Source: Hormiphora californensis (taxonomy: Eukaryota; Animalia; Ctenophora). Taken from it: a stretch of DNA of 64,000 nt. Each line of letters begins with the position of its first letter. The stretch's first letter is position 1. Positions 1 to 43,200 of the stretch are shown here, piece after piece. The DNA lies in assembly GCA_020137815.1 (NCBI GenBank), contig CM035351.1, positions 62,001-126,000 on the forward strand, written 5' to 3'. A program made the position numbers and the translations under genes. The notes under the pieces are model-generated. The model was given only the letters and a program-made list of their open reading frames with translations. It was not told the DNA's origin and searched no databases.

Positions 1-91
1 TCCCCTACCTCTCCCCACTCAGCCCCTACCCCTCCCCACTCAGCCCTCTAGTCCCTCACCCTCTAGTCCCTCACCCCTCATCCCCCCCCAG

Positions 92-1530
92 GTGTCTTAT
101 GTGGGTGACAGGGGTAACAACTAACACCTCATCCCCCTTTAATACTGCAGGTGTCCTATGTGGGTTAGTGTCTGACGGTGTATAAGGTCCAAATGAGGCA
201 CGGAGCTTTTCTGAATCAGCTTTTCAAGACGAATCCAACGCAACCGGAATTAGCTTTCTATCTTATCGGGAAGGTTCGGTTCACTCACACTCATTTTTAG
301 TCATTTTTGCCGCGCGAGCCAATCAGAGGCCAGAATTTCGAAATCCAGCCCTCTGATTGGCTCGCGCGGCCAAAAATGAAAAAAATGAACCACACCTTCC
401 CGATAAGATAGAAAGCTAATTCCGGTTGCATTGGATTCGTCTTGAAAAGCTGATTCAGAATACCTCCGTGCCTCATTTGGACCTTATACACCGTCAGACA
501 CTAATGTGGGTGACAGGGGTAACAACTAACACCTCACCCCCCTTTAATACTGCAGGTGTCCTATGTGGGTGACAGGGGTAACAACTAACACCTCACCCCC
601 CTTTAATACTGCAGGTGTCCTATGTGGGTGACAGGGGTAACAACTAACACCTCACCCCCCTTTAATACTGCAGGTGTCCTATGTGGGTGACAGGGGTAAC
701 AACTAACACCTCACCCCCCTTTAATACTGCAGGTGTCCTATGTGGGTGACAGGGGTAACAACTAACACCTCACCCCCCTTTAATACTGCAGGTGTCCTAT
801 GTGGGTGACAGGGGTAACAACTAACACCTCACCCCCCTTTAATACTGCAGGTGTCCTATGTGGGTGACAGGGGTAACAACTAACACCTCACCCTCCTTTA
901 ATACTGCAGGTGTCCTATGTGGGTGACAGGGGTAACAACTAACACCTCACCCCCCTTTAATACTGCAGGTGTCCTATGTGGGTGACAGGGGTAACAACTA
1001 ACACCTCACCCCCCTTTAATACTGCAGGTGTCCTATGTGGGTGACAGGGGTAACAACTAACACCTCACCCCCCTTTAATACTGCAGGTGTCCTATGTGGG
1101 TGACAGGGGTAACAACTAACACCTCACCCCCCTTTAATACTGCAGGTGTCCTATGTGGGTGACAGGGGTACCAACTAACACCTCACCCCCCTTTAATACT
1201 GCAGGTGTCCTATGTGGGTGACAGGGGTAACAACTAACACCTCACCCCCCTTTAATACTGCAGGTGTCCTATGTGGGTGACAGGGGTAACAACTAACACC
1301 TCATCCCCCTTTAATACTGCAGGTGTCCTATGTGGGTGACAGGGGTAACAACTAACACCTCACCCCCCTTTAATACTGCAGGTGTCCTATGTGGGTGACA
1401 GGGGTAACAACTAACACCTCACCCCCCTTTAATACTGCAGGTGTCCTATGTGGGTGACAGGGGTAACAACTAACACCTCACCCCCCTTTAATACTGCAGG
1501 TGTCCTATGTGGGTGACAGGGGTAACAACT
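92..1530 (+). repeat. 59-bp tandem array (~19 copies) made of the splice acceptor and first ~31 nt of the APBA exon at 1500
   Basis: Unit is ...cctttaatactgcAG|GTGTCCTATGTGGGTGACAGGGGTAACAACTaacacctcacccc; only the last copy continues into the open exon. Confidence 0.95.
166..503. mobile_element. hAT-like MITE (338 bp) inserted in the 59-bp array
   Basis: ~40-bp TIR TAGTGTCTGACGGTGTATAAGGTCCAAATGAGGCACGGAG, with further inverted similarity inside; 8-bp TSD ATGTGGGT at 158-165 and 504-511. Confidence 0.9.
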
Positions 1531-2770: not shown

Positions 2771-2929
2771 AGTTGGTTTTGCTCTTTCAGATTTTGTTGT
2801 GTTGTTTTTCTTTTTCTTCAAACTTCTCTTACTTTTGTTTGACATCTTTTTTTTGCTAAATTGATATCTGTGTTTTACTCTGAGTGTAACAAAAGACCAG
2901 CACATATGTTGTGATATCGTGTGTACATA

Positions 2930-3188
2930 TTAAGCCAAAAACTAATTGGAATTAGTTGGCGGGAAAGGTGGCCCACTTACACCTTTTGCTGCTACCGGGT
3001 ACCACGAACTGTCATTCTCTTCACGTCACGTCGGTATCTCAATCTCTCTCTCTCACCCTTTCTTTCTCTTTCTCTATTTCACTCACCTCTTATATCCCTG
3101 ATACATTTTAAAATAAAACCCGGCATCAGGCAAAGGTGTAAGTGGGCCACCTTTCCCGCCAACTAATTCCAATTAGTTTTTGGCTTAA
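2930..3188. mobile_element. MITE with ~55-bp TIRs, TA or TTAA flanks
   Basis: TTAAGCCAAAAACTAATTGGAATTAGTTGGCGGGAAAGGTGGCCCACTTACACCTTT and its reverse complement ending GGCTTAA. Confidence 0.85.
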
Positions 3189-4424
3189 TTTAGGTCCCTT
3201 TTTGGTTTCTAATGTCAGTATGACATTATTTCATGATGTAAAATTGTCAAAATGATGTGTTATATGAGAAACGAGACGAATTTCTGTGAAAATCGTAATT
3301 TTGACGTCATTATGACATCATCTGACGTAATTAGTGACGTCGTAACAACGTAATTGCATCACAATATATTTTGAATGAATACCCTGAAGGAGCTTGTAAA
3401 GTATCATTGACCGCAGTGGTCAGGAAAGGGAGTTTTTGCTAGAAAAACGTTCAATTTGCTGAATTTTTCGTCAAATTTTTGACTTCCGACGCAATTTAAG
3501 GGCTCAAAATGATGAGCTACGAAAATTCGATATATAGTATCTGAAAGTTCAGACGATTTGCCGGTAACGATTTTTTGTCAAATCAAAAATCGGAACACGT
3601 CTCAAGGGTGCTAGAGGCGTTTGAAAAAAGTTAGTCGGTCTCGCGCAATGACATCACTCGTGACGTCATTGCGCGCGTCATAGGCAAGATGAAGAGTCGC
3701 CACCAGAATGGGTACATGCACGAGACAATTATCTGTCGATTGCCGCTTGGTTTAAGGTCGTACGATGTCTGGTTCGTCTCAAACTGGGACCAAACGGAAG
3801 GTAACAAAGCGTCTATACATCTATATATGTATATATGTATCAACCTAGTTATCCCCACACTGAATTTTCTGTTTTGGGGGTGGTGTTATAACTTTTGAAC
3901 AAAAAGAGCTAGCCACTTGAAATTTTTACCATCGATAGATGTCTACAAGAAGCTTCTGAGTACACAATTTCAGCTTCCTAGCTCATCCGGTTCGGGAGTT
4001 ATGGCCAGTCAAAAAGTGCCAAAATGGGCTAAAAGTATGAAATAACTATATATACGCTGTGAGCAAGCGGGCCGTTTTTTGGGGGAATTTTTTTCGGGGG
4101 GTTGGATGGGGCCACCTTTGCGCTTGCCAGCGCAGTGATTCAGCTGCAACACACATATTATTCCCAATGCGATTGTAATTTGGTGGGGTAAATAAATAAG
4201 CGCGGTGGCGCGCCCCTACAATTACCCTGTTGTCACTGCGCGCTACACAATATTCCCTCAAAAAGTGTGTCAGCCGTGTGCCACACACATAATTATTATA
4301 CAACTGGGTACTGGATGTTATACATGTAGTTTGGGGGTTGGTAATAAGAAAATGGTAATAAAATATACACAAAATAAGAATTAAACATGTCTTGATAGAT
4401 ATATCGGCTCTACTAATCTGTATT

Positions 4425-5528: not shown

Positions 5529-8500
5529 TGAAACTCGATCCTTTGGTTTGATAAAACGAGCTCTCGTCTAATTGTCCGTGTGTACCACCCTTGTACACCC
5601 AGCTAGACGCCAGTAAGCCGCCTAAAACCGTCAATTTCAACTACTAACTGACCAAAACAGCAATGAATGACCTTCAGAAGGACCTTTTGTGTCGTGTCAA
5701 ATTCAGCGTCAATTCTTCCGAGCACTCCTCTTCTGTGAAAGCAGTGTTAGATCTGATTCTGAGCAACGAGGGTGCATTGCCGACCAACTCCAACAAACCA
5801 AGAAAAGAAGATCTATCAGCAACTCTTGATGCCATTAATGACTTTGTGGGAGAGTTTATGACCGGCCGGTCAGAGATCTGGCACTCCAATGCAGACACTA
5901 AAGGCACCATGGCCCTACTGATATCATCATTTTTCGCTCTCAACCCAGCTCCCTCATGTCCAGTGTGTAAGACACCACCTCCCCAAACGTTATCCCTCGG
6001 AACTGACTGTCTTCGATGCCTCTGCTGCGGTTTACCTGCCCACACTGACTGTTATAAGGGGGTAAACCCAAAGAAAGGGATCTACTACATATGTACCAAG
6101 TGTAACTGTGATCCCCGTAGAAATATCGTTACACACAAGATGGCAGTCACGTCCAATCGGGCAGCACAAACTGTAGCCCCAGCCTACACAACGGATTTGA
6201 AGGAACCACCCCACGCTGGAACCATCATAACGGACAAACTGCAGACACAAGTTCAGAGTTCTTCCTCCACTGAAGATACCCACTCACAGTATTCTGTCAC
6301 CACGGATGACAAAGAGCAGACTATAAAGGATACTAGCCATCCTCCCAACCCTGCGAACTCATATAGAAGAAACCGCACATTTGACAGATCGCTCATCATC
6401 TGCAGATACTTTGAATCCAACCGGTGTAAGTATGGCATCACTGGCGGATCCTGCCCTAACTACCATCCACCATACTGCCGGAGATTCCGAAATTATGGTC
6501 CATGTGAGAAACTGGGCTGCACAAACTCGGATGAGGAGTGCAAATATTACCATGCCTCCCTCTGCAGTAAATCTCTGATGGGACGAAGATGCACTAACAA
6601 GGCGTGTAGATTGACGCATATTAGGATGTCACCTACTACAGCTACGAGGGTTGCTCTCCTACCCACTCCACCCAGTCCCAACCACCCGAATGTGCCTATT
6701 CCTAGTTCTCTTCCCACAACCGCCAGTTCTAACAGTAGTAACACGACCTGTGTGAACACGTCTAGTTCTGTGCCCCCATCTACCACCGCCAGCCCTAACT
6801 GTAGTAACACGACCTGTGTGAACAAGTCTAGTTCTGTGCCCCAATCTACCACCGCCAGTTCTAACAGTAGTAACACGACCTGTGTGAACACGTCTAGTTC
6901 TGTGCCCCCATCTACCACCGCCAGCCCTAACTGTAGTAACACGACCTGTGTGAACAAGTCTAGTTCTGTGCCCCAATCTACCACCGCCAGTTCTAACAGT
7001 AGTAACACGACCTGTGTGAACACGTCTAGTTCTGTGCCCCAATCTACCACCGCCAGCCCTAGCTGTAGCAACATGGACTGTGTTGCCGCAGCTAGTTCTG
7101 TGCCCCAATCTACCACCGCCAGCCCTAGCAGTAGTAACATGGACTGTGTTGCTGCAGCTAGTTCTGTGCTCTCACCTACCACCGCCAGTTCTAACGGTGG
7201 TAACATGGACTGTGTTACTGCAGCTAGCTCTGTGCCTCTCTCCCACACCTATGTTGCTGCAAATGGCAACATGGGCCCTGAGAAAGTTCCAATTCAACTA
7301 CCAACGACTGCTCCAGGGCCTAATAACATCCCACTGGATTTTCTGAGGCTCTTGGAAAACCTCACAACCACAGCGAGGCTGATCATGGGGAGTCAGTTCC
7401 AATTCAATACCATCCCGAACTACCAGGTACCGGATCTATACACCCAACAGCCACTGCCAATGAATATGTATTACCAGCACCCTGTACATCCCCACCATGC
7501 TATGGGCCACCAGTACCCTCTTGGCAAGGCAAACATGTAGAGGACCGCTGCCACACTCCCCGACCACCGAGGGAGTTAGCCGAGATGTTTCTGCTTAATG
7601 CACATGGAATCAACCCCGGTTTCTCTTCACACAAAGTGAAGCTGCAGCAAATCAGAGAATGGGTTGCCACATCTCATTTCAAGATCCCCTTCTTCGTTAT
7701 CACAGAATCATGGTTGAATGAAACAGTTTTCGACGCGGAAATATCATTTGAAGGCTTCACGACCTACCGAGCAGACCGTGTTGAGCGGAACCAAGGTGGA
7801 GTGGTGATCTACATCAATTCTGATATTCCTGTCACTGATGTGAAGATCTTCTCATCAACTTACTGTGAAGCAGCCAGCGTGTACATGGAAACAGCAAATA
7901 CTGTCCTATCTGGTGTGTACAGGCCCCCTGCTTCCTACTCAGACCCCACCCGACGATGCCCGGTAGACCATTTCCAGTCGTGTCTTCAGGGAATCGAGAG
8001 CTTCATTAAGAAGCACGAGCCTGCTAATGTTATACTGACAGGAGATTTCAATTTGCCTATGGTAAACTGGGACAATTTAGAGATCAAAAGTGGACTGAAC
8101 ACCCTGGCCACGGAACGACAGTCAGCTGAGCTACTTCTCAGTTTATCGGAGAGACTCTTTCTCCACCAAGTAGTTCATAGCCCCACCCGCATGGATAAGA
8201 ACATCTTGGACCTAGTTCTAACTAACAACGACCACCTGATCCATGATGTGGATGTAGTCAGAACAGAATGGTCAGACCACGACCTAGTGAAGGTAACTCT
8301 GAAGACACAGGAGATCAGTGGTATACTTGTCGAGAGCGAGGAGCCCAAACTCTACGAACCGCAGTCAGAGTTTGACAACTTTAACTTCAACAAGGTCACC
8401 CAGGAGACATGGGAAGAGCTCAACATTGCACTTCACAAAATAGATTGGACTGATGTGACCTCTGCAAAAGACCAAAACGAAGCCTGGGAGAAATTCAGAT

Positions 8501-11500
8501 CGTCCATTGCAAAAGTATGTGCCCAATTCGTACCCCAACACAGTGGCTCTCGAAAGAGACGTGTTCAGAAGATCCCAAAGCACCGGAGAAAGCTTCTTGT
8601 GAAGAAAAGAGCACTTGTACGTAAACTAAAAGGTGCCAAGAAAAAAGAGAAAGAGTGCCTGATACAGTGTAAGAGGATTGAGGAACTGTACACTGCACTT
8701 TCACGAATTGAATTAAACATGGCATCTAACATCCACGAAGACAGACTGCGAGAGGAAAGAAAAATCCTGAGAAAGATCAAAGTGAATCCAAAAGCTTTCT
8801 ACACCTACGCAAAGAAGAACAAGGCGTCTAAGTCAGGAATTGGTCCTCTTAAAGACCAAAATGGTGAACTACATGCCGACCCCGCCATCATGGCCAACCT
8901 CCTCCAAGACCAGTACCAGAAGGTGTTTAGTGAACCTATCGAAGGGCCAGTCAATGAGCAGGGACCACCAGGATCCCCTGTTATGAGTGGTGTGACTATC
9001 ACTACTGACACAGTCGTTGAAGCAATCAAAGAACTGTCTCCCCACACCGCACCGGGCCCAGACAAGTTCCCAGCAATAATGCTGAAAAAGTGCAATAGAG
9101 CCTTAGCGCCAGTAATGGCGGAGCTGTGGCAGGCGTCCATACAGACTGGGGATATTGCGTCTATTTTTAAACAGCAGTCAATAGTCCCAATTTACAAGAA
9201 GGATAATAAGAGCTCTCCCGCGAACTACAGACCTGTTAGTTTGACAAGCCAACTTGTTAAGGTCCTAGAGAGAGTCATCCGGAAGCAGATGGTTAACTTT
9301 GTGGAGGAGAACAACCTCCTCTCGCCGGACCAGCATGGCTTTAGGAGTAACAGATCTTGCCTATCACATCTGATCCAGCACATTGAGGACGTAATCGATG
9401 ATTTAGAGAATGGGAAGAATGCAGATGTGCTCTATCTCGACTATTCGAAAGCATTCGATAAAGTATGCCATCTCACCCTTCTAGAGAAACTATCAGGATA
9501 TGGCATCCGGGGAGACCTCCTAGACTGGATTAGAAGCTTCCTGATGGGTAGGACCCATTCAGTCATTGTTGACGGAGTACCATCGAACCCGGGACCCGTA
9601 AGATCTGGAGTCCCACAGGGGACGGTCCTAGGACCACTACTTTTTGTGTTATACATTAATAACCTACCAGATTATGTGCTCCACAGCAAATCGAAGATGT
9701 TCGCTGATGACACAAAGCTACATAAGTCAGTGTCGAGCGAGGATGATCGAAAACTGTTGATGGATGACTTACAAAATGTTTTCAGCTGGGCACTCGAAAA
9801 CAGTATGGAACTCAACGACACCAAGTTCCAATTACTACAACACGGAAAGAACTTGGAACTGAAGCAGCCATACCAACTAACATCCAACATAGTTGTCAGC
9901 GGAAGGGCAGAAGTGAGAGATCTCGGCGTGATAGTTGACCCTGACCTCACATGGAAACCACACATTACACACATAATCAAGAAAGCTAACACCATGGCTA
10001 GTTGGACCTTGAGGCTTTTCAAAACAAGAGATCCTCAACACCTGCTTACTTTGTATAAGACCTATGTGAGATCTCACCTAGAGTACTGCTGTCCAGGTTG
10101 GTCGCCACACCAGAAGGGCGATATACAAAAACTAGAAGCGGTCCAAAGATCATACACCGCGAAAATGGAAGGAATGGACGGGCTCAACTACTGGGAGCGC
10201 TTAAAAGCTCTCAAGATTTACTCCCTCCAGCGACGCCGAGAGCGATATAAGATTCTCTATATGTGGAAAATGTTAAACGGCCTCGTCCCTAAGTCTCCGA
10301 GTATTGACTTTCGAAAGACCATCAGTAGGAGTGGCGTCATTGCTGAACGTCGCCTCGGCAAATCCACTTGTCCCAAGGGTGTCAAAACCCTGATACACAA
10401 CTCCTTCACCTCTTCGGCGGTTGGGTTATTCAACGCAGTCCCAGCCAGAGTTAAGGACCAGTTAACCATCGAAGGTGCTAAAGCGGAACTGGACAGGTTC
10501 CTAGCGAGCATACCCGATACTCCCCCTACTAGAAATTATTCTCCCTCGAACGACAACAGTATTCTGAAGTGGTTGGAGGCAAGGCGCGGTCAGCAGTCCG
10601 TTAGCCTGACGTAGATTCTACCAGATCTTCTACAAAGGTGACTACAAAGGTGACTCCCTCTCTCCCTCCCTCTCTACCTCCCTCTCTCTCTCTCTACCTG
10701 TTGTGTTATCAGTTCCCGTATTTTCTCTTGTAGCATGGTGCATTCTTTCTGGTCTGAAGAGTTGGTTAGAGAGCAGGGGAAGACCCCCTTAACATGTAGA
10801 GTCAGCTTGTTGGGGTTCCATGTCCCACCTAGATACCTATCAGGAGGGGGAGAATTTATCACAAACCCATGATAATATATGTAGAGGCTCACGTGCCCGG
10901 GTTATTCGCTACACGAAACATCTGGAACTCACCCACACACTTCCTCTGTGCTAAGATGACAGTGGTAGTCCACCCCCTTCCCCCACTTACCCACACACTT
11001 CCTCAGTGCTGAGGTGACAGTGGTAGTCCATCAGTAGTAGTGAGTTACTACTAATGTACACCGTGTAGGGCTGCTTCTGACCCACTACACAGAACTTGAC
11101 GCAGTCAACTAGGGCTGCTTCAGGGGGCACTGCCTCTTGCCGGGCCTCTAACATCGCCTCAGGTTCAGTGGCCTGATGTAGGGGAGGGGAGGGGGGTGTT
11201 AGGGTTTAGATATCAGATATTGGGAATGATATTGTCATAACAGCTGTAACTCACCCTAGCCATGGCCTGCTGCCCCCCCCCCCCCCCCAATATTGGTATT
11301 ATGTATAACTCACCCTAGCCATGGCCTGCACACCCCCCCAATATTGGTACTATGTATAACTCACCCTAGCCATGGCCTGCTGTTCTAATTGAGCCACTGC
11401 CATCTGTATCATATGGGCGTGTTGAACAAGGGCCTGCTCCAATATCAACTGGGCCATCTTATCTTTACTCCCTGAGGCATTGTGTTCCTGAATGGCTTTC

Positions 11501-13846
11501 TCCAATGCAGCCTGATTTATTAGAGCATTCCGTATCATCTCATTCTCTAACACTGCTTTCTGCAGTATAGCTGTTTCATCCATTTGTGCAGCTGCAGCAC
11601 TAGCAGCCTTCCTCTTCTTCCTCTCCTTCACCGTCTCTTTCCCAGATGAAGCCCCCTGCACTGCCAATATCTCCTGCTGGATCTTATAGAGTGCTTCCTG
11701 TTGTAGTTGTGCCTGTAACAGAGCATCTTGTTGCAACCACAGCATCTGTTCCTCCTCCTTGCTACTCCCTCCCCCTCCCTGCTTCTGTTGCTGTTGCTGT
11801 TGTTGCTGTTGCTGTTGCTGTTGCTGTTGTTGCTGTTGGACGAGCGATGCCAGTTCTGCCTGTTGTTTCAATATCTCTGCCTCAGCAGCTGAGTGTTGTT
11901 GTTGCTGTTTCGATGGCTGTGCTGCCGCTGCTGCAGTCCCTGCCTGTTCTATCAGGGCCTTCTCCAACACTAGCCGCTCTGCCTCCGTTAGCTCCTCATT
12001 AGAGAGTAGTTTCTGTGCCAGGAAGGCTACATGATGTTCTGAAGAGGAAGATGAGGTGCCGGGCTGTTGGTGGTGGAAGTGGTGGTCTGCAGTGGGGGCC
12101 GGTACTGGTATGGGGTCTGGGGGTCCTGGGGTTGTGGCTGTCGCACCAACTACTGGGGGTGTGGTGGGTGTTTCAACTTGCTGCTGCACATCAGAACCAC
12201 TAGCAGAGCCCTCCTGGGGAGATAGAGGTGTGAGATGATACAGGGTACATCTCAGGGATATAACTAGTTTAATAATTAATAGGTTTAACCACGTGGAACA
12301 AGGGCAGTATAACTCACGTGTGATACATGTGATGAACTCTCATCTGGCTCACTCTCCATATCATCCTCATCCTGAGAGAGAAGGAGGGGAGAGGGGGTTA
12401 GTAGCTCGGGAGAGGGGTTAGGAAGAGAGGGTTAGGAGAGGTTTGTGAGACAATTTGTTGCTGATTAGACTCCCAGTACCTGTTTCGTAGTATGTAATGT
12501 AATGTGTGATGACGTGTTTCCAGTCATTCTAGTGGCAAGGAGAGCCACAATGGCATCATGGATGAGTTGGTGTTGTGAACTTGGGGTGATCCTCTCAGGT
12601 ACCCCTGGTTCCATGATATTCCTGGTGCCTTTTCGAGGATGTTGTTGTTTGTTGGATGGTTTGTTGGATGGTTTGTTCTTTAGTGGTATTTTTAGTGCCA
12701 GTTTGGGTGAGGATTTCATGGTGTTTGGTGTAGTTAGTTGAATGCTCTGTGTACTGTACTTCTCTACTATTGTGGGTCGCACTGTGGGTCGTACTGTGGG
12801 TCGTACTGTGCTTTTACCCTTTACCTATAATATGATGTGAGGTTTAATTCCTGACTCCTGTGAGATTGTTCATTAGTTATGAAACACATGCATCCTGGCC
12901 TCTAGCCAATATGCCCTCACTCCCGAGATTCCATTACCTGAGTACCATGGGGGGAACCACCCCCGTCACTTCCTGTTGTACTACACACTGTACTACTACA
13001 CAGTCCCCTAGTAATACTAGTCCCCTAGTCCACCCTTATTGTCATTACCTGAGTGCCGTGAGGGGAACCACCCCCGTCACTTCCTGTTGTACTACACACT
13101 GTACTACTACACAGTCCCCCCTCATTACCTGAGTCCCATGAGGGGATCCACCCCCGTCACTTCCTGTTGTACTACACACTGTACTACTACACAGTCCCCC
13201 CTTATTACCTGTGTCCCATGGGGGGAACCACCCCCGTCACTTCCTGTTGTCTTGTGACCATGCATCTGCAACCACTTGTTTTTATACCAATCTAACTTCT
13301 TTCCCTCGTATTTCACTGTAGTCCACCCACAGGCATTCTTCTGGTCTGGGTTCACCAGTCTCTTGCAGTGAGATGCCCAGGCCGAGGGGGTCGGAAAGAT
13401 CAGGTTCATATCCTTCCATTGTACCTGCCCATCCTCCAGCAGGTCCCCCTCGAATATGTTACTGAAATACTCCATCTTCAACACACCGCTACCTGGGAAT
13501 GGGGAGGGATGGTTACAACTCCATCTTCAACACACCGCTACCTGGGAATGGGGAGGGATGGTTACAACTCCATCTTCAACACACCGCTACCTGGGGGACA
13601 CAAGGTTACCATGATGGTGATTGGGAAGATCATGGATGATGAAACATAGTCATATGTCTGTCTGTCTGTATGCCACGTTACCTGGCTTGAGAAGCTTGTC
13701 CTTTATCAGATAGGAAAGATGAAGGCTCCGACCCCAGCCAAGCTTCTTCTCACTTCGTCTCCTACTCTTCCCCTTGTTAGAAGAAGGGGGCGGTGGGTTC
13801 TGGCCCCTTTGAGCCTGTTTTTCCAGGGTTTTCCGTAGAAGATCAT
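4618..13846 (-). CDS. MPND: MPN domain-containing protein (RAMA domain, Gln-rich linker, JAMM/MPN+ domain); ~10 exons, approx. 13846-13682, 13492-13209, 12824-12480, 12371-12317, 12213-11374, 11172-10991, 10837-10698, 5409-5232, 5047-4983, 4843-4618
   Basis: RAMA-like: LSYLIKDKLLKPG|SGVLKMEY..FPTPSAWASHCKRLVNPDQKNACGWTTVKYEGKKLDWYK. MPN: LLLMDYHCHLSTEEVCG|YLGGTW and VIGWYHSHPTSSPRPSQHD (JAMM HxH..S..D). The start at 13846 needs one extra G (ATGGAT), which is an inference. Confidence 0.9.
5663..7540 (+). CDS. LINE ORF1 with PHD finger, CCCH-type zinc fingers and an internal 20-aa Ser/Thr repeat
   Basis: CPVC..CLCC..HTDC..CTKC (PHD); CRYFESNRCKYG..CPNYHP, CRRF..C..CKYYH, CSKS..C..CRLTH; 60-bp repeats at ~6715-7235. 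Confidence 0.85.
   Translation: MNDLQKDLLCRVKFSVNSSEHSSSVKAVLDLILSNEGALPTNSNKPRKEDLSATLDAINDFVGEFMTGRSEIWHSNADTKGTMALLISSFFALNPAPSCPVCKTPPPQTLSLGTDCLRCLCCGLPAHTDCYKGVNPKKGIYYICTKCNCDPRRNIVTHKMAVTSNRAAQTVAPAYTTDLKEPPHAGTIITDKLQTQVQSSSSTEDTHSQYSVTTDDKEQTIKDTSHPPNPANSYRRNRTFDRSLIICRYFESNRCKYGITGGSCPNYHPPYCRRFRNYGPCEKLGCTNSDEECKYYHASLCSKSLMGRRCTNKACRLTHIRMSPTTATRVALLPTPPSPNHPNVPIPSSLPTTASSNSSNTTCVNTSSSVPPSTTASPNCSNTTCVNKSSSVPQSTTASSNSSNTTCVNTSSSVPPSTTASPNCSNTTCVNKSSSVPQSTTASSNSSNTTCVNTSSSVPQSTTASPSCSNMDCVAAASSVPQSTTASPSSSNMDCVAAASSVLSPTTASSNGGNMDCVTAASSVPLSHTYVAANGNMGPEKVPIQLPTTAPGPNNIPLDFLRLLENLTTTARLIMGSQFQFNTIPNYQVPDLYTQQPLPMNMYYQHPVHPHHAMGHQYPLGKANM
7585..10614 (+). CDS. LINE ORF2, APE endonuclease plus reverse transcriptase (CR1 type)
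   Basis: ITESWL, GVYRPP, TGDFNLP, LDLVLTN, SDH (APE); NYRPVSLTS, LDYSKAFDKV, GVPQGTVLGPLLF, MFADDTK (RT); LEYCCPGWSP and YWERLKAL (CR1 C-terminus). Confidence 0.96.
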   Translation: MFLLNAHGINPGFSSHKVKLQQIREWVATSHFKIPFFVITESWLNETVFDAEISFEGFTTYRADRVERNQGGVVIYINSDIPVTDVKIFSSTYCEAASVYMETANTVLSGVYRPPASYSDPTRRCPVDHFQSCLQGIESFIKKHEPANVILTGDFNLPMVNWDNLEIKSGLNTLATERQSAELLLSLSERLFLHQVVHSPTRMDKNILDLVLTNNDHLIHDVDVVRTEWSDHDLVKVTLKTQEISGILVESEEPKLYEPQSEFDNFNFNKVTQETWEELNIALHKIDWTDVTSAKDQNEAWEKFRSSIAKVCAQFVPQHSGSRKRRVQKIPKHRRKLLVKKRALVRKLKGAKKKEKECLIQCKRIEELYTALSRIELNMASNIHEDRLREERKILRKIKVNPKAFYTYAKKNKASKSGIGPLKDQNGELHADPAIMANLLQDQYQKVFSEPIEGPVNEQGPPGSPVMSGVTITTDTVVEAIKELSPHTAPGPDKFPAIMLKKCNRALAPVMAELWQASIQTGDIASIFKQQSIVPIYKKDNKSSPANYRPVSLTSQLVKVLERVIRKQMVNFVEENNLLSPDQHGFRSNRSCLSHLIQHIEDVIDDLENGKNADVLYLDYSKAFDKVCHLTLLEKLSGYGIRGDLLDWIRSFLMGRTHSVIVDGVPSNPGPVRSGVPQGTVLGPLLFVLYINNLPDYVLHSKSKMFADDTKLHKSVSSEDDRKLLMDDLQNVFSWALENSMELNDTKFQLLQHGKNLELKQPYQLTSNIVVSGRAEVRDLGVIVDPDLTWKPHITHIIKKANTMASWTLRLFKTRDPQHLLTLYKTYVRSHLEYCCPGWSPHQKGDIQKLEAVQRSYTAKMEGMDGLNYWERLKALKIYSLQRRRERYKILYMWKMLNGLVPKSPSIDFRKTISRSGVIAERRLGKSTCPKGVKTLIHNSFTSSAVGLFNAVPARVKDQLTIEGAKAELDRFLASIPDTPPTRNYSPSNDNSILKWLEARRGQQSVSLT

Positions 13847-13957
13847 TGCTATAATACAGTGGAGGTAGTGGTGAGGTAGTGGAGAGGGAAGAAGTATTTA
13901 ACAACATAGATCCAGGCAGAAGACAATTAAAAAACTTTAAAAAACACTGGTAAAATG

Positions 13958-18158: not shown

Positions 18159-18723
18159 ATTCTGAAAAGGAATTAAGACAATAATAAAAATTAAGTCAAA
18201 TGACCTCCAGGTGCCTTACTACCTTTGCGAAAAATCGACCGCAATCAAAAGTTGAGCGAAATAATCTGGTAAGAGCAAGTCTGGCGGGGGTTTACGTGGC
18301 TTGACCTCAAAGCCCCTGAAATAGGGGACTACTGCAGACAGAGGTGGCGTAACCGAAGGAAGCTGAGAACGCAGCCCCACCACCCCTCGGCCTCCCCCTA
18401 TAAATTCGTACAGAGGAGGTGGCTAGGAACTGAAATTTTGGGCAAAATGAGCTCAAAATACAGAACTTCGAAATTTTCCGGGCTACGCCCTACGCTACAA
18501 ATTGGTCAGCCCCCTTCGAGAAAAATCATTTCGCCACCCCTGACTAGTGACTAAAGAGTATGCCATATATACGCAATAGTTAATACGCGTATGCAGATAG
18601 GTTCGAGATTTCAGTAGCAAAAAAGGAGGAAACAATTGGCAAACGTTGCTGGCCCCCGCGCAGCGCGGGATAAGGCAGCGCTTTTCAAAGGAAACAAAAG
18701 CAAAAAAAGCGAAACTTGGAAGC

Positions 18724-27377: not shown

Positions 27378-28029
27378 GGAGAGTTAGCCGTTGGGGAGAG
27401 AGAAGGATAGAGAGAGTTGTCAGTTATAGCACAACGACTTGTGGTATTGGGCGGACCTTTCGCATTGTCCAGTGAATTGTGACATCTCCTGCTCTCCCCC
27501 CCCCCCCCCCCCCTCTAGCTCTCTCTTTCTCTCTCACCCCATCGGTACATATATATGCAAAACACATGTGCTGCTATTACACCATCAAACACCAATACAA
27601 TCTTCATTTGCCGAATCTCCCAAAAAAGTAAGTATCACTATTCATGTTATATTCTGCCCTCTAACATGTGTCATGGTTCTCCCTCATTTCGCCCCAACTA
27701 CAACATGTTGAAATTAGGGGAATATAGTGGCAGAACGATAAAGTAATGTCTGATAATTATTATTATACGGTGGTCGGTGGAACAATAGGAATTAGCCCCC
27801 CCCCCCTATATTGCTAGGAACAGGCTGTGGTCAGAGCATTGGCCTGACAGCGAACAGGAGTTATAGGTTACTAAGGTTACTAAATAGGCAGCCTATAAAC
27901 CGTCTCCAATGATCAAATAACCTAACATGATGTGTTCAATAACATTTCAATAACAACTATAACCGTGACTAAAGAGTGATATTATACTGACTATACTGAC
28001 AAAGCAATAGAGGAAGTGAAGCATGGAGG

Positions 28030-31000
28030 GAGGACAATGTGTGTTTTGTATAATGGGGGGGGGGTAAATAAATATCTTTTACTAGTAGTCTCTAGGGGTA
28101 TTTGTAACAATGGAGGGAATATAAAAAAAATAATGGTTTCCATAAAAGGGGGCCGGGGTGTGGGGTTAAAATGAAATACTATTCTTACTAGTTTTTTGAT
28201 TTTTGGGGTGTCGGAAGTTACAAAGCTGGTCCGTTTAGGGGAAGCTGGGGGGATTTGGCCCCCGGGGAAAATGCCCATTTTGGGGGAAATGGGCCCAGTT
28301 ATTATGTGGGGCACTACTTTTTCTCCCGGGGACCTGCTCTTCTGTTTCCGGTTTTTTTTCAAAACTGCTGTAAATTTTGTTTGAGTTGGGCCCATTTTAA
28401 TTTTGGGAAAAAAAAATCCATTAGGTTTTTTATCCTTTTAAATCTTTTAAAAAAATTTTTTTTTTTAAAAAAACTCATTTAATTTGATTAAATTGTCAAT
28501 TTTTTTGAATCGGGCATTGGCCCACCTCCGGGCAAAATGGTCCCCGGGCTGGGGCAAAGTGGCCCCCTCTTTGGAAATGTGGGGGCCTCAATACCCCGTG
28601 ACATTGAAAAAGGGGCCCATGTAGTCCAGACGGTCAAATTGGGGAAAATGGCCCATTTTCCGGTGCAGAACATGGCCCCTTTCCCCCTATTTGATCGTTT
28701 CGCTAAAAACACCAGGCACGTAAAAAAAACGAGCAATGCTTTGGCTTGGGGCCCATTTGCCCGTGAAAATTTTCCAAAAAAAACGCCTCACCAATTTATT
28801 TAAATTGATTAATTAACCCATTAAATAAAATTTCAGTTTTTAAAAAATTAGCTCGGCAAAAAGAAAACGTCCATTGTACCCTTTATTTTTTTCTTCCTCT
28901 GTATATATTGCGTTTTTGAAACCCCAAAAATTAAAAAAGGGCCCCTTTTACCCCAGCTTACCCCATTTTTATTACTGCTACTGTTTTTTTCAGGGGTTTT
29001 TTCCTCAAAACTCATGTTTACGAAGGGTCCCCCTTTCCCTCGGAGTCTAGGAAAAATCATTTTCCCAGCATTTTTGGGTTCTCTCCGGGGCCATCATTTC
29101 CCCCCCCGCCACAAGAGGCAAAGTAGCCCCTTACGTGAAGTCTCCTGAAAATGAAAAACCCGGGAAAAAAGACGAAACAAGGAAAAGCGAAAAAATGATG
29201 GAAACATGTCAAGAAAAAAAGGGTGATGAAAAACCCTCCTGCCCAAATTAAAACCCAAAAAAGGGGAACATTTTCCGCTCCTTGACAAATTTTCAATTTT
29301 TTTTTCCCAACAAAGGTTTTAAAATTTTGGAAAAAATGGGAAAGGGGCAAAATTTTTTACCACCCCCTGATGTAGAAAAAACAAAAAGTGGGGAACAATG
29401 AACAAAGAGGGGGCAGCAAAAAAACTAATGTAAGTCCCTTCCCTGTTAAAATATGCAAAACTGGAGGCCCATTGGAAGTGCAAAAAAATCAAAATGCCAT
29501 CTGTACATGGGGAGAAGTAGGAAAAATCCCCCCCCCCCCACTGAAAAAATGTCCCCCCCACAAACCATCAGGGGTCTATAAGGGCCACGGCCCCCCTTTT
29601 TTTCCTCGGGAACCCCTAACAGCTCGATGGGAGCCCTCTCCCACGCCCCCCAAAAAAAAGGACGGAAGGCGAATTTTCAGAACCCTCTTGTTGTGCCCAA
29701 AGGCGCTCCAAAAATTACACACAGCTTCCGAATTTTTGCTGCAAAATGCTGGGAAAAAACCCACCTTCCTTGCCAACGCCAAAAAGAAAAAGCAATTGCT
29801 GAAGGGTGGGTTTTCTGGAAAAATTTTCCCCTTTTATTTATCACTGAGACCATTTAACTAAACTTTTTTTTGATGTAGAATTTTGAAATGGAAAAATTTT
29901 TGGGTTTTTTAGAGCTGACCGGTTTCGAAAAAACATGGGGGTGTGGGTATATACGTGGAAACACCCAGCTGACTCCCCAAAAAGTGTTTTCCCTCATCTT
30001 TGTGAACTCCTGGGGCTGATTGTTCACAAATGTTCATGATCGGGATTTCCGCCCACCACTTCCTTTTCTCACCAAAAGATGCTGTCCCCCGGAACCTTCG
30101 GAACTGTCTCACGCTTAAAAAAGTTTATGGGAGAATAAACCCCAAAAAACGGATCATATCCGGTGACCTTTAAACTCCTTTGTGAAAGGGGAAATCCCAG
30201 AAGTAACACCCGGCCTCAATGTACTTGTGTCTAAGAGTGCCCGGGAAATCACATTAGTTAATGAATTCTCTGTTCTTTTCACCAGTTGTGAAAGAGCCCA
30301 CCGAAAAAGGAAAATAACTCGATGTAATCCTAACCCAACAAAGAGAATATGATTCACGCATGAAGTAAAAGCCACTACCCTCTCAGTCATACCCCTTTTG
30401 TCCCCTTCTGTTGCCAGAAAAATTCCCGCTCAATGGAAGAAGAAAGGGGCCCTTGCAAAGGGCGGGCTTCACCCCAAAACCCTTTTTCACTCCGGTAGAA
30501 CAAGCTCGGGGGCAATATCCGGGCGGGAGCTCCGAGTCTGATGGTCTAAGTACTTTCAGCCCCCGACAAGATCTTGCTGGGCATGTTTTCGACATTTTCG
30601 CAAATGTTGTGCAAAAAACCCCCCAAAAACACAAGACAAAATCCCGAGGTAAAAACATACCCAGGGAAAGACGTATCCTCCTACGGAAAAGAAAAAAGTG
30701 CTACCAAAGGATAAAAAGGGGCCCCCAAAAAGAAACCAAANNNNNNNNNNNNNNNNNNNNNNNNNNNNNNNNNNNNNNNNNNNNNNNNNNNNNNNNNNNN
30801 NNNNNNNNNNNNNNNNNNNNNNNNNNNNNNNNNNNNNNNNGTGTCTCTCCACTACGAATGCCCCCCATTCCGGGTCGGATTCAGGCAAATTTACGTCGGT
30901 ATGGCAATTATTGGGATGACCACTGTTAAAAACGATAAAAAACCGAAGTTTTTAGAGGGGGAAGAAAACAGCCCCGTTTTTATGAAATTTGGGTCAGAAA

Positions 31001-32428
31001 GTGTTTGGTGAAAAAAAAATTTAGTCCCAAACTCCTAAATTTACGATTTTTGGGTTTTTTTTGGGTTTTGGGGGGTTTTTGGGGGTTTTTTCAGAACGTC
31101 CTAGAAAAAAATGAAAAAACCCACTTTCTTAGCGTGAAATTCTGTATCGTTTTAGTGGCAAAAACCTTCTATACAAAGTTTACCCAAAACGGCTCTGTTT
31201 GGGGGGGGGTACTGTTTGGGCTAACGGACGAACCTCTTGTAAAAAAACCCATGTTTAGGATAAATCGACGTATAGGGGGTGAAATCTTTTTAGTAAACCT
31301 TTTTGATCTGCATTCTGTGTAACAAAATAAACCAAAAAAACCCTTACCACATAATCTACCCTTGGGTTTTTTGGGAAACCTTTTAAACCTTCGACACGCT
31401 AAAAAGGGTTTACAGCCCATGATCGATGCAAATTTCACCCGAAAAATATTCTATTTATTTTGTTCTAGGACTTTTCCTAAAACCCCCATAAAACCAAAAA
31501 AAACCCAAAAAACCTAAAAAACCTAAATTTAGGTTTTGAGCACCCCCAAAACATTTTGACTTCTAATTAGACATCAAAGCCATTCTGACTGATTTTTTCA
31601 TCAAAAATCCTATTTTCACTTTAAAACCTTCTTTATTAAAACAACTCAAAATTTCCGGGGTTCGCTTAGGGGTAAGGGCCACCCTAAAATGAGGCTTATC
31701 ACCCCCAACACTAGGGGTATTGGTTGGAATCGATAGAGGGACTTAGAAAAAATATTAAGGGGGTTGAAAACACCTTTTTATTTAATAATAGTGTAAATTC
31801 GTTTTAATTAATGTCCTTTAAAGTTTTTTAAATTTTTTTAAAATGCCCTTTAAAGCCCGGGGACTTTAAAGTCACATTTATTTAGGACGATTTAATTCAC
31901 GCGGGCCCCCCCCCCCACCCCCCACTCCCCCCATGGGGCCTAAGGTCCCACCGGGTTAATCCCCCCACCCGCCCTTTTTTGGATCTGGGGGCCCGGGGGC
32001 CTGCGGATAAGGAGGTAAACAATTTACTGGGGTAATTGAACAATGTACTAGGGGTTAAAGTAAGGGAAAACATTTAAAAGGGGAGTTAAAGCTCATGGTG
32101 GCGGAGCATAAGACCCCTAACTATCTGGGAAAAAACCCCCCGGGGTGAAAACAAAAGGGGAAAAGGAAAAAATGGAATCAGGGGAAAAGGGGGAAAAGGG
32201 AAAAAAAAAAAATTTTAAAAAAGGGGGGAAAAAAAATTCATTGGAATTTTTTTCTCCTCTCTCTCTCCCTCTTCCCCTCCTCCTCCCCCTCCCCCTCCCC
32301 TCCCCCCTCTCTCCCCCCCTCCCCTCCCCGCCTTCCTCCCCTTTTTTCCCCCCCGACGGGGACCCTCCCTTTTCCGGTTCCCCCCCATTTTTCCCCTTTT
32401 GGGGGGCCCCCCCGGGGGGGGGAAAAAA

Positions 32429-32461
<33 letters not shown>

Positions 32462-35400
32462 GGGGGGGGGCCCCCCCGGGGGGGGGGCTTTCCCCCTTCC
32501 CCTCTCCCCGGGTTTTTTTCCGGGGGGGCCCCTTTTAAATGTGGGTTTTGGGGTTTTTTGGGGGAAAAAACAAAAAGGGGGGGGGTTGACCCGGTTTCCC
32601 CCCCCAAAAATTTTTCTCCCCGGGGGCCCCCTCCTTTTCCCGGAGGGGGGGGGGAAAAAAAGGGAAAAAAGGGCCTTGGGCCCCCCTTTTTTCTTTTCCT
32701 TTTTCCCCTTTTTTTCCCCCTTTTTTTTCTCTCCCTTTTTTGGGGCCCCCCCCTTCCCCCCCCGGGGGGTCTAATTTTAAAAAGGGGGGGAAAAAAATTA
32801 CCTGGGAAGGGGGGATAATGAAAGGGAAAAAAGAAAAAGGGGGGAGTTTTAAAAAAAAAGATAAGGTCCCTCCCCTGGGCCTTCCCCTCTCCCTTTTTCA
32901 ACCCTTTTCCCACCCGGGGGGAAAAAAAGGGGTTTAAAAAAAGGGAGAGGGTTTGGCCCCCCGGGGGGGGTTTTTTGGGGGGGGGGGGGTCCGGGGGGGG
33001 GCCCCCCCCCTTTTTTGGGGAAAATTTTTAAGGGAAGGATTATCCCATTTTTTTTTTTAAAAAGGGAAAAATTCCCTAAAAAACAGTGGGTTGCTTTTAA
33101 AAAATTCCCCAAAATAATACACCAAACAGTGCTGGAATGGATGGGGGTGATTCGTGCCGGGATGAAGTAGAAAAAATAGCTACCCGGGTGACTGGGGTGT
33201 TTAAATACCTGAGGCCATAAATGCCTTTGGGGAGTATGTTTGTAAGGAACCTATCAAGGGATATAACTCTAACAAGTTTTATAGTTTTGTTGTTTGGGGG
33301 AAATCTTCTACCTTTCCCCCTTTTTCAACAAAAATTTCTACCCTAATATGATTTCACCACTTTTTGGGGGAAAAATGCTAAATATGCTACCAGGAAAATC
33401 AGTGGAAGAAATCTGGGGGGGGCAAAAAAATAGATATCTCTGTCCCTCTACTATTGGATATTGGGGTGATGGGTTGGATAGGGGAAATTTTTTATCAAAA
33501 CAAATTATTATTGTATCTTTTGGCCAGTTAGACAACAAATACAATTCCACGTACAATTACTGCGGCTATACTGTCCTTATTCAGATCTGTAAACTGTCCC
33601 TCTTAAAATTAATAAGTTAAAAAAAGTAATCAAGTAAAATCAAAAAATCAGTTAAGAAGTAATCATAACCACACAACTGAATAACCACACAACTGGCACA
33701 AGACCAGATCGAAAGATCCCCGTCAAATATCCAATTACATTAATTTAAACGGCCTACTCGTCTTTTTTTTACCGAAATAAAAAATATTCTAAAGAAGGTT
33801 CAAATGGCTCTTTGGGGCCCAAACCACCTTTCAAAGACCCCCCCCCCCCCCCCCGCCCTTTGGGGCGCCGTCACCTCTCTGCTACCGGGCTTTTGTTTTT
33901 GGGGGCCTAAACGCCGAGTTTAAGGGGGGGCTGCGTCAAACCCCGGCCCCCACAGTCTAACACACACCATTTTCCCATCAGCCTCTACTCTTATAGGACA
34001 CGGGAGAAGAGAGAGGAGAAAAGGGGACCCCGCTATAATAAGATGGTAATTAGGTGACACCGATTGACATTATTAAAATCCACAAACATTATATGCAATA
34101 AAGTATGTTGATGAAGGAGAAAATAATAACATATAGCGACAGTGGTAAAAACACACTGCTAATACATCAAACGGGTGGCACACTGAGGATTCTCTCTCTC
34201 CATTGTTCTTTCTAGTATATGTTGTTGTGTATAAAACTCATTTGCTAATGAATAGTATTCACAATACAATATGTAGGGGGAAGCTGCAAAGAAGTGTGAA
34301 CCATACATCTATAATACCAGTCATTATCAGGCTACCACACTGCAACGATTGGACTCGGACCAAATGATAGCGGGTTACTATAATTGGAATATAAGGTCCA
34401 GGGGGAGGCCTCTATTGCAGCACTGGTGGTGCGTGTCTACCTATAATAATGAGAAGGTAATATACTGGCGGTGTATATCAAAGAAAGTGTGGCCCCGTGG
34501 TGATGGAAAGAAGGGAGAGTGGATAGAAGGGAGAGAGTGAAAAGAAGAGAGGGAGAGTTATAATAGAGACGTGGTAGAGAGAGATCAGAGAGGGAACTAT
34601 AATGTTACAGAAATGAATAGAACATAGAAAGCACCACCTGATAGCTGTATTATTATTGTATAACTACATTATTATACTACAACATTATACTGGGCACTAC
34701 AGGACAGAAGACGGGCTAAAAGTGAAGGCTTGTTCAGACTGTTTTGCGTTTTAACAATGCCGTCGAACTCATGATGATGAATCATCGTAAAACTACTTGA
34801 ATTTGTGGTGTATTGCCTTCGAAAGAGATAAACAGAGTCATAGCCGGCTGATCCTAGGTAATAGAAAACTATCAAGGGTGGATAAGAACTGTAAATCATC
34901 GGGGAGAGAGAAAGGGAGAGAGAAAGAGAGAGAGAGAGAGAGCGACGAAGAAAAAAGAGAGACGAGTAAGGAGATAAGAAAGGAAAAGAGACAGGAGGCC
35001 GGATAGGAAGGCACGTGCCCCTTTGAAAAGCCCGGGGGCCCGGGCGGGCTCGAGCCGGTGTGCGCCGTCAAGGGGGGTTTTTTGGGGTTTTATGCTTCTT
35101 TGGGGAACTTGGATTCTAAGAGCGAAAGGGACCTGGGACGTGTGTCAGAGAGATATTAGTTGGGGGTATGAGGAAGTACCCCATTCGGGATGGGGCTTTT
35201 AGATTTAGATAGGTTCGAGAGATCAAAAAATGAGTCGAGGGGATGTGGTGAAGAACACTTCACAGGTGGGATAAAACGGTTTGGGGGGGGGGGAAAAAAG
35301 GAGGGGGGGGAAAAAGGCCCAACCAAAAAAAATTTAAAACCGGGGGGGAAAAGGGGGGGGGAAAAAGGGGGGTTCCCCCCCCAAAAACCCCCCCCCCCCC

Positions 35401-36728: not shown

Positions 36729-36765
<37 letters not shown>

Positions 36766-36845
36766 TTGGGGGGGGTTTTTTGGGGGGGGGGGGGGGGGGG
36801 GGAAAAAAAAAAAAAAACCCAAAAAAAAAAAAAAAAAAACCCCAA
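28030..36845. other. Low-quality, homopolymer-inflated sequence around a scaffold gap (100 N at 30741-30840); not interpretable
   Basis: Long runs of G/C/A/T with no codon or splice structure, worst at 32150-33110 and 35280-36845; typical of untrimmed read ends. Confidence 0.85.
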
Positions 36846-37245
36846 ATTCATACCAACAGGTGGTCCGGGATATAATACTAATTATAAAATGCGTTATGAA
36901 CATGAAATTCTCCCTAGAAAAAGAGAGGAGCCAGGTCGTGGTGGAAATGAAAAAGAAAGGGAGAGGTTGGAGTGGGAATTGTGGTGAAGGGAACTGGAAA
37001 GTTCCATGGAAAGTTTCCTGCGGTTCGAATAAATCTAATAACTCGATAGTTACGGGGTTTCGCGAAAAAATGTTAACATTCTGATAAACACAATTATAAT
37101 ATATTAATATTGCAGATTACCAATAGCGTCTATAAATATAACGGTTTAAAAATCCACTTATCTTGTCTCTCACATTACAATCCTATTATATCTGTTAGAG
37201 TCGGACCCGGATTTACCGGGTCTGACTATATCTCAACAAGTGCAA

Positions 37246-40200: not shown

Positions 40201-43200
40201 TTGGGACTATTATCTACTGCACGTGTTGCAGGAGCAGCCCCTCTAGTAGAGACACCTGGGGATACCGTCCCTGCTGATCTTTGTATCCTCTGAACCTTTC
40301 TCTGTTTCCCAGTAGCTGTGTTTGTCTGTACTCTGCTCTTGGTGTTGACGCTGAACCTGCGGCGATATCTGCATGTTCAGTATTAGCATCATAGTGAACA
40401 ACAGTAGCGGGGGGGGGGGGGGGGAATAACATTCACATTGTAGAGAGGTGAAGAGAAAACTGAACCGGGGAAATATTACCAACACACACACACACACAAA
40501 CTGAAGCAGGAAGGGGCAGGGTACAGGAATGTTAAAGGGAGTATTACCTGGTATTGTCAATGTTAAGAATAACACAGGCAGTCCCATGTTGCAGGTAAGC
40601 AGTTTCTAGTTTACTGCTCTGCTCTGTTCCGTAGTCGCTCCATATATTGTCATCAGTCAGCCACTGCCACACTGGCACCTGCACCTGGTCAGAGAGAGAG
40701 TGGGTGTTAGAGGGGTAGTAGGTGGAGGGGGAGAGGATCTGTCAACCACTGCCACACCGGTACCTGCACCTGGACAGAGAGAGGGGGGTTAGAGGGTGTA
40801 CCTGCACCTAGAGAGACGGTGGGTTAGAGGGAGAGTGGGTTACTGTCAACCACTGCCACACCGGTACCTGCACCTGGAGGAAGAGAGGGGGGGTAAGAGG
40901 GGTAGTAGAGGGGGGTTAGAGGGCAGGTTAGAGGGAGATGGGGTTACTGGGTCAGCTGTGTGGAAGGGAGATCGGTTAGCTGGGTAGACACTGCACCTAC
41001 CTGTACAGTCACACTCTCTTCCCCCGCTGTTTCATATAACACCTACCTGTACAGTCACACTCTCTTCCCCCGCTGTTTCATATAATTTGTTGATTTCATC
41101 GACTGCAGGCATCCAGTTCCCAACGGGGCGGGATGCAGACCTCTTCACGATCTTGTCATAAACCAACTTGAACCTCCCTATCCTCCTGCTGGCTCCACTA
41201 GAGAGAGATTTAACTGTACAGGTCTGGAAGTCAACAAGGTATCCAGGATGGGCTGAATCCGCTCCTTTCATACTCATCCTGCTTTCACCACGCAGGTAGA
41301 TGGCATCAATAACTGGGGGGAGAATTAGAAATGTGAGGTAGGGGGGAGTGGAGAATTAGAAGAGTGTTGCTCCAGTGTTGCCATGGATACAATTAGTAGA
41401 GTTGTGTTTTCAGATTGTCCTGTAAACCACCCCCTGTTTAAAACCCCTGCTGTGTACCGGGAGGATTTGTTTTTAGCCCTACCTTCATTTTGTTTCGGAT
41501 CGTATGGGTACCAGTTATCGTTATCCCCCATCCAATGCCACATGAGAATGTCCTGACTAGAGGACATGACTTCTGGAGAGGGCAGATCGATCCAACCCGA
41601 GGGGAACACCCTGTTATAAACTGCCAACACCTCTTTAGATATTTCGTGAAATATCACATCACGTTCTATGGACATTATCACACGCTTTAACAAACCTAGA
41701 ACAAGAATGAAACAGATTTAGCTAACCTGAAACAGGAATGAAACAGTTCTTATATCACAGACCATTGGTTTTATGATCAGAAGTTTCCCAGTACTTACCG
41801 CTGTATTTCATAACTACACTTTGCAGTATTTGAGCGATCTGGCGGTGAGGTACCTTCCTCCCCTCTGTTAGATGCGGAGAGAGAACAAGACAGTCAACAC
41901 CCTGACTAGCAGCTCCAACGATTAGCAGGGCTATCTTCCTCTTTAGAAGGTGGGCTTCTTCTTTAGTTAGACTGGTACTATCTCTACCTTTCTTTAACTA
42001 AACGGGGGGGGGGGGGCAATTAGTTAGACTCGTACTATCTCTACCTTTCTTTAACTAGGAGAGGGGGGGGGGCAATTAGTGCAAGTAGCAAAAGAGCCAG
42101 ATAAAGTACATTGAGTAACAATTGAAACAGGGGAGATGGTATTGACTATAAAGTACCTTAGGTAGGGGAGTAACAGAGAAGACGTCAAATTACCTTAGGT
42201 AGGGGAGTAACAGAGAAGACGTCAAATTACCTTTGGTAAGGGAGTAACAGAGAAGACGTCGAGATGTTCAGGTTTCTGAAGGAGCATGTAGTTGCGTTGT
42301 TGAGATTCTCTGAACACAGCCACTCCACTGTTAATCTGAACCTCTGTAGGACCTAGCAAACCCAACTTGCCACTCCGCTTGTGGCTCTTTACAGCACTAA
42401 AACAGAGAGGGGAGTTACTACTGGTAGTGTGATACACAACTAATTGATTAATAATCACTCAATTTACAATTAGTCGCTAATTGCTCAGTGTCTCACACTA
42501 TAACTATATCTCCCTTCCCACTCACCCGTCTACATCGTCTACACAAGTGTAGTAGTTGCTACGTCGTATAAACTCTTCCAGCGGCCCAATACCCCCTGTC
42601 CTCCATTCTCCCCCGGGACTATCCGGGTGGGCGGGTACAAATACACCCGGCCGGTACCCACTCCTTTGCAGGTGGAGACACACCTAAATGATAGGGAGGG
42701 AGGCTGTTAGATATAAACTATATAGGGGAGGGAGGCTGTTAGATGGGGGGATGTTTGCTAGATTGTTGCACATATTGGACTATAGCAACTAATTCACCTG
42801 TATCGGGTCTGTATTAATGACATTGATCTCAGTGGACTTGTAACGTGGAAGGGGTGGCTCCTGAAGGACCCCCTTGTCCATTATAACATGTTTGGAGGTC
42901 TTATTGGGCAGGTGGACATGCCCCCCAGTGGTAGGTAGTGTATAATTCCCCCTCGTTACTGCCTCTCTGGTCCCCATCATAACACCCACTAACAGACTCC
43001 TCATCCTCTTTACCTGGTAACAAATAGAGTTCTGGAGTTCAGAGTTAGGAGATAATAGTGAGGGGACACACACGAGACAACAGTGTTGGTAATTTGGGAA
43101 GGTATTATAGGTCCATGGGAAGTATACCTTAGCATTAGCTTTATAGAACTCGAACCAGGTTCTCCATTGTTGGCTATCAACAGCGGACCAATCAGGTGAG

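Follow-up and report, generated by a model that had tools for sequence, protein, structure and literature searches.

An exon end and its splice donor form a copy-number-polymorphic tandem repeat, with silently differing copies, in an MPND-like gene of the ctenophore Hormiphora californensis

Internal tandem repeats at the exon-intron boundaries of human duplicated genes were reportedly described by De Grassi and Ciccarelli in 2009, and the CBS 844ins68 insertion duplicates a splice junction. Among the minisatellites known to lie across an exon-intron boundary are the 37-bp VNTR of human F7 intron 7 and those of CBS intron 13, lamin B2, PDGF and 6-16, as enumerated in one account (Borensztajn et al. 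2006, PMC1557585); in F7 the first donor is normally the only one in use, according to the same account. For CBS 844ins68 and c.833T>C, gene conversion from the insertion-bearing chromosome to the working exon of the homologue has been proposed (Vyletal et al., PMC2630376). The internal repeats of human duplicated genes are described as varying by unequal crossing-over and slippage (PMC2812944). In the literature covered here (titles and abstracts, with most subscription journals outside its scope), none describes silent exon-end arrays that are fed by other alleles, and none deals with synonymous diversity in Pleurobrachia.

The window, by which we mean the whole 64-kb stretch of H. californensis DNA that was analysed, contains an MPND-like gene. 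It was so called from a RAMA domain in the repeat-bearing exon and a JAB domain downstream, and the ortholog P0003 bears the name MPN domain-containing protein-like. An 86-residue query from the exon showed 100% identity to P0001, labelled Pleurobrachia bachei by its source, and 75% identity to P0002, the cluster of which includes a Bolinopsis MPN-domain protein. P0001 is a predicted gene model that diverges into unrelated sequence after HGTQ and was excluded as splice evidence. The parts of the locus are as follows, in the order of transcription:

13209..13492, minus strand: MPND exon with the RAMA domain; repeated unit formed by its last 42 nt (13209-13250); phase-0 donor CAG/GTAATA
13171..13208, minus strand: spacer 1, 38 nt; opening bases of allelic intron type C
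13129..13170, minus strand: copy 1 with its donor; GGA, CCT, ACT; X4 record 13, 0 differences
13091..13128, minus strand: spacer 2, 38 nt; differs from spacer 1 by one change
13049..13090, minus strand: copy 2 with its donor; CCT, CAC, GGC, ACT; X4 record 12
12980..13048, minus strand: spacer 3, 69 nt; intron start of allelic type B, then a 29-nt tail common to all spacers
12938..12979, minus strand: copy 3 with its donor; GGT, ACT; X4 record 9
12825..12937, minus strand: rest of the intron; opens with allelic type A, which lies directly 3' of the real exon in copy-less alleles
12480..12824, minus strand: likely next exon; phase 0, open frame; P0002 is without a counterpart

The candidate exon at 12480-12824 (minus strand) comprises 115 codons and has 12-nt internal repeats and in-frame allelic indels; two of its four changes among those listed are non-silent. 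A LINE-type element (5648-10614, plus strand) lies antisense within an MPND intron and possesses two open reading frames, one of 630 aa that has 66-nt coding repeats and one of 1095 aa for an endonuclease/reverse transcriptase; a second long open reading frame of similar look was seen at 46775-49780.

On the minus strand the end of the MPND exon (13250-13209) is repeated three times in the intron (13170-13129, 13090-13049 and 12979-12938). Each unit is 42 nt long and reads TTGSDGGGSPHGTQ, and GTAAT follows in all four cases, which confirms that the donor copies described in the first-pass annotation are real. The periods are 80, 80 and 111 nt and the spacers 38, 38 and 69 nt, so that the 80-bp spacing given there holds for the first two periods and fails for the third. 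The 80-bp spacing is out of frame, as had been claimed: read-through to the donors of the copies would add 80, 160 or 271 nt, none of them in frame, and this use of the copies as alternative donors was rejected. The intron part of the last unit is unrelated to those of the other units. All three copies have one junction and an identical 52-nt core in common, and their five variable sites fall within the last seven codons of the unit (P = 0.03).

Six distinct changes set the units apart, and they fall on five third-codon positions, namely 24, 30, 33, 36 (twice) and 39 of the unit. All six are silent, one Gly codon occurring in three states, much as the first-pass annotation had read them. With 27-30% of the possible changes within the unit being silent, six of six has a neutral probability of 4-8e-4, which puts the unchanged peptide beyond chance.

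The MPND array is one of eight framed exon-edge arrays in the 64-kb window. Together these hold 14 copies, six of which match the exon exactly and eight of which differ, and their distinct changes are silent in 15 of 15 cases (log10 P = -8.8), two being first-position Leu changes; outside the MPND focal array the count is nine of nine. The frame of each array was fixed independently, from the WWE match, from the fact that one frame alone was open, or from the joined reading frame of MPND. Copy boundaries were set by eye, which slightly favours a silent result, and one of the 15 changes lies at the last base of a copy. A 59-nt acceptor array (504-1530), the exon of which is unframed, was excluded from the count. 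An automated donor-repeat scan, run without a shuffle control and not used as a statistic, found no further exon-edge donor array, and a degenerate-pattern scan across metagenome contigs returned 0 matches. Three of the arrays with silent differences are:

exon end 10991-11028, intronic copy 10933-10970, minus strand: second MPND array; three silent differences
exon start 40655-40684, upstream copies 40740-40769 and 40844-40873, minus strand: start of a WWE exon; four silent differences, including CTG/TTG
42157..42260 overall, exon end 42231-42260, minus strand: exon end with two copies; silent TTA/CTA and CCA/CCT; one of the three frames is open

The first upstream copy of the WWE exon start, 30 nt long (40844-40873, minus strand), has an acceptor ahead of it and a donor-like GTAACC site behind it, and is a possible in-frame cassette microexon. 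Other exon-edge duplications on the minus strand (13469-13600, 11255-11380, 41001-41082 and 45256-45349) have exonic parts that match the exon exactly; downstream of the copies at 11255-11380 and 45256-45349 the intron starts differ. At 90-1530 (plus strand) a 59-nt repeat of an acceptor plus exon start, in about 17 copies, lies upstream of PDZ-domain exons, its first unit being split by an insertion of some 340 nt (~166-503) with inverted-repeat ends. The window further contains MITE-like small elements with terminal inverted repeats (2929-3189, 18635-18690 with 50949-51205, and 52930-53680), homogeneous tandem arrays (40-nt x23 at 58151-59080 and 43-nt x85 at 60324-64000) and, at ~28000-37000, homopolymer-rich and apparently low-quality sequence around a 100-N gap (30741-30840) that is unfit for annotation.

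The array was compared with contigs from sequencing runs X1 to X4, which represent one sample (S1), and X5 and X6, which represent a second sample (S2), taken from another study. Of the six copy variants, four (GGA, ACT, CAC and GGC) are present in other alleles at the working exon end. GGA was found at the real exon end in X5 record 21, ACT in X5 records 18 and 21 and in X6 record 26, and CAC together with GGC on a second S1 haplotype (records 2 and 10), where contig-graph logic places them in the real exon. Neither CCT nor GGT at position 36 was seen at a real exon end among the rows listed, the table omitting changes near contig ends. For the unit region this table has 14 rows: seven changes in the real exon, all silent, two on the second S1 haplotype, four in copy 1 of S2 and one in a spacer. 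Three of the four S2 copy-1 changes are silent, and the fourth (X5 record 19), which alters the unit's first base and turns Thr into Ala, is the sole non-silent change found in any copy. Two of the silent S2 changes make the copy in X5 record 18 a mosaic, itself silent and new, of copies 1 and 2 of the window; the third, in X6 record 25, restores GGT at position 24 of copy 1. The real-exon alleles of S2 vary at unit positions 9 and 15, where the window copies are invariant; the restriction of variation to the 3' half is therefore a property of the copies.

The intron starts show a corresponding variety. In X6 record 25 the copy is followed by intron of the spacer type (type C) that continues for a further 125 nt, so that the spacer is likely to be the start of a third allelic intron type, the one that bore the first duplication. 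In a copy-less S2 allele (X6 joint 12911-13204) the real exon passes straight into the sequence found downstream of copy 3, and at another copy-less joint of S2 (X5 joint 12905-13204, record 13) the intron start agrees at 21 of 23 columns with the sequence that follows copy 2. GTAAT is all that intron types A and C have in common. Copy number thus varies among alleles, being 0, at least 1, or 3. The second MPND array has its copy on the other S1 haplotype as well, one X4 contig (record 2) covering both exon end and copy; there the copy (10933-10970) has three listed changes, at unit positions 15, 24 and 30, all of them third positions. Direct evidence that the copies of the focal array are composed of exon ends and intron starts from other alleles is the new element here.

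The best reading is that the MPND array is real and that known recombination processes acting on extreme diversity explain it. Specifically, we propose, with a probability of about 0.72, that it is a copy-number-polymorphic tandem repeat of the exon end plus donor, the copies of which are likely to be silent-only through out-of-register recombination between homologous chromosomes, by which working exon ends from other alleles take the place of their 3' halves. A single duplication of 42 nt of exon and 38 nt of intron would have arisen on an allele of intron type C; the shared junction and identical core of the three copies support one founding event. A copy would then have mispaired with the real exon end of the homologue, and a crossover or a conversion tract starting within the unit would have imported the exon 3' half and intron start of that allele. 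Support for this step comes from the type-B start after copy 2, the type-A start after copy 3 and the confinement of variation to the 3' half. The type-B patch after copy 2 rejoins the spacer at a GGGGACT common to both and has the look of a conversion tract; copy 3 with the entire downstream intron looks like a crossover, though recombination is here deduced from sequence, in which the two processes are indistinguishable. Exchange between two copy-bearing chromosomes would add units. For the listed changes, alleles differ at about one fifth of silent sites and rarely at replacement sites; the imported pieces would for this reason differ only silently and, having been working exon until recently, would already have passed through purifying selection. 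Splicing would use the first donor and leave the copies untranslated, to judge from the frame and by analogy with F7. Several points speak against this scheme: the homology available for exchange is just 42-80 nt, CCT and GGT at position 36 are missing from the real exon ends among the rows listed, the window copies do not share the S2 exon variation at positions 9 and 15, one S2 copy has the Thr-to-Ala change, and copies 2 and 3 might in principle be in-frame cassette exons.

The proposal requires much allelic diversity. In the MPND coding exons 30 of the 34 allelic changes are silent (the coding ones among the 40 of 264 difference rows listed), and 87 of the 1694 sites in seven exonic pieces (5.1%) depart from the window sequence. 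Silent divergence among alleles is ~0.21 per silent site (0.10-0.27 over the seven pieces) against 0.26 between units, an estimate that comes from the longest listed pieces of one gene and is likely to be biased upward toward divergent haplotypes. Throughout 10900-13900 exon divergence is very high (~5% per site, ~21% silent) and the intron starts are largely unalignable. These values suggest species-wide hyperdiversity. H. californensis is credited with 2% SNP heterozygosity and indel-rich introns, exonic heterozygosity being high and intronic heterozygosity apparently under-measured (PMC8527503). The barnacle Balanus improvisus is cited with a coding diversity of ~5%, and ~20% at fourfold sites (PMC8270832), figures close to the 5.1% and ~21% obtained from this one ctenophore gene; the synonymous diversity of 14.1% given for C. 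brenneri (PMC11925023) is in contrast lower than the ~21% of the single gene MPND. Since the MPND divergence is of the same size as in hyperdiverse animals, the level of diversity that the model requires has a precedent.

Four other explanations were weighed, one of which questions the array itself. It is very unlikely that the exon ends of several pooled animals were stacked in tandem by the assembly, even though all four units are never spanned by one read or contig, S1 is possibly the assembly's own source and low-quality sequence exists elsewhere in the window (~28-37 kb). The X4 contigs include the real end, each copy and the spacers, all with 0 differences and at depths of 39-48, the two-fold shared piece having a depth of 100 and the three-fold spacer core one of 145, and 31-mer unitigs built from the window predict these pieces with multiplicities 1, 2 and 3. 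Predicted and X4 contig ends agree except for one base at copy 2, the order of copies 1 and 2 not being fixed by the contigs; a second departure, a fork at unit position 30, is accounted for by the second S1 haplotype. This haplotype, the sole other exon end among those listed in S1, leads from exon through unit into copy-3-type intron without a spacer. The alleles of S1 form a two-allele pattern, which suggests a single diploid; in that case all four units must lie on the other chromosome. In the independent study, one S2 contig (X5 record 18) runs from the exon across the spacer into a copy, with over 31 letters to either side. Run X1 has near-zero depth over copy 1, although X4 from the same sample contains it, and this gap was treated as contig filtering. 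The first-pass annotation had argued that two haplotypes could not yield the array by artefact, and had named pooled animals as the circumstance that would undo its reading. The first point is borne out by the S1 and S2 contigs; as to the second, a four-copy layout at one-haplotype depth next to a copy-less second haplotype, together with the bridging S2 contig, makes pooling unlikely.

The remaining three accept the array and explain its silence otherwise. The copies might reach the protein, either as cassette exons or by way of alternative donors, and be kept silent by protein-level selection on the copies themselves, which we consider unlikely. With AGs in the spacers as acceptors, copy 2 would form an open in-frame exon of 72 nt and copy 3 one of 87 nt; the donor is kept in every copy, and at the 40k locus one copy is bordered by an acceptor and a donor-like site. 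However, these candidate acceptors have 45% and 30% pyrimidines as compared with 60-100% in six real acceptors, and one of them is GAG; an acceptor with its own pyrimidine tract was not found for each copy, and the frame could be kept for copies 2 and 3 through weak AGs but would be lost by donor read-through. The sole in-frame AG of copy 1 lies just 8 nt past the real donor and is unusable, and several alleles are without copies. Two contigs of X7, a run guessed to be RNA, are ~80% alike (<90%), leave the unit region uncovered and have no bearing on expression. Selection on the copies or their use as exons, at which the earlier reading had hinted, is not needed, since the variants are ordinary alleles of the working exon and silent divergence between alleles approximates that between copies. 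It is rather unlikely, too, that each copy is a one-time frozen snapshot of a different allele or time, with no later exchange. Such snapshots would also draw on allelic variants and, once the first events had occurred, would need no short-homology recombination; but separate duplications should differ in their junctions, which here are one and the same along with the 52-nt core, and S2 has a mosaic copy. Moreover, neutral old copies at 26% silent divergence would be expected to show ~8 replacement changes per pair, and 0 were observed (P 3e-4). Chance, by which neutral copies happened to gain only third-position changes, is scarcely credible: the array was indeed singled out for its silence, but the other arrays are just as silent, and alleles of the real exon segregate for these variants too.

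Out-of-register exchange with other alleles, the reading preferred here, would explain a signal that resembles protein-level selection on non-coding DNA without any function of the copies, and is a warning for gene annotation and for dN/dS tests in highly diverse marine genomes. The locus also points to ~20% silent diversity in a ctenophore gene, within the range of the most diverse animals reported. On this reading the copies are natural recombination markers within 40-80 bp of homology, each recording its partner allele. A single 64-kb window has ~8 arrays in its genes, so that testing the idea genome-wide would cost little. A wider and more doubtful idea, which we put forward tentatively, is that the allelic introns of this hyperdiverse ctenophore differ so much that exon edges are left as the main homology, and that misregistered exchange at these edges is constantly creating and renewing stacks of working alleles in introns across the genome. 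If this were true, the stacks would preserve a legible record of recent recombination partners, would be a reservoir returning silent variants to exons and would act as a nursery for new cassette exons.

The MPND array resembles the minisatellites of the F7 and CBS type in that its first unit spans the exon-intron boundary, its donor is repeated in the intron with GTAAT after every unit, and its copy number is polymorphic among alleles. The F7 unit is described as including four exonic bases and giving identical pseudo-sites (PMC1557585), whereas the MPND unit comprises 14 codons and its copies are silently different. Unlike those of F7, the MPND copies are followed by different allelic intron starts, and several such arrays occur within 64 kb. 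The head-to-tail monomers of MPND are uniform in the first two periods (80 nt) and not in the third (111 nt), and the last intron part has no relation to the others. As with CBS 844ins68, sequence is proposed to have passed between a copy-bearing chromosome and the homologue's working exon. The CBS case, as presented in PMC2630376, is that of a single insertion and a single harmful variant, where conversion is a surmise based on haplotypes; in MPND several copies each took up neutral alleles, and the apparent flow is into the intronic copies. Two marks of a duplicate fed by alleles were found, namely variants common to the duplicate and working alleles (four of six) and exchanged flanking markers or mosaic units (the intron starts after copies 2 and 3, and X5 record 18). 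The repeats treated in PMC2812944 likewise span exon-intron boundaries, but that study compares paralogues with new introns or retained repeats, and the word 'synonymous' is absent from its main text. Besides the evidence from alleles, what is new in comparison with these systems is the density of such arrays in ctenophore DNA.
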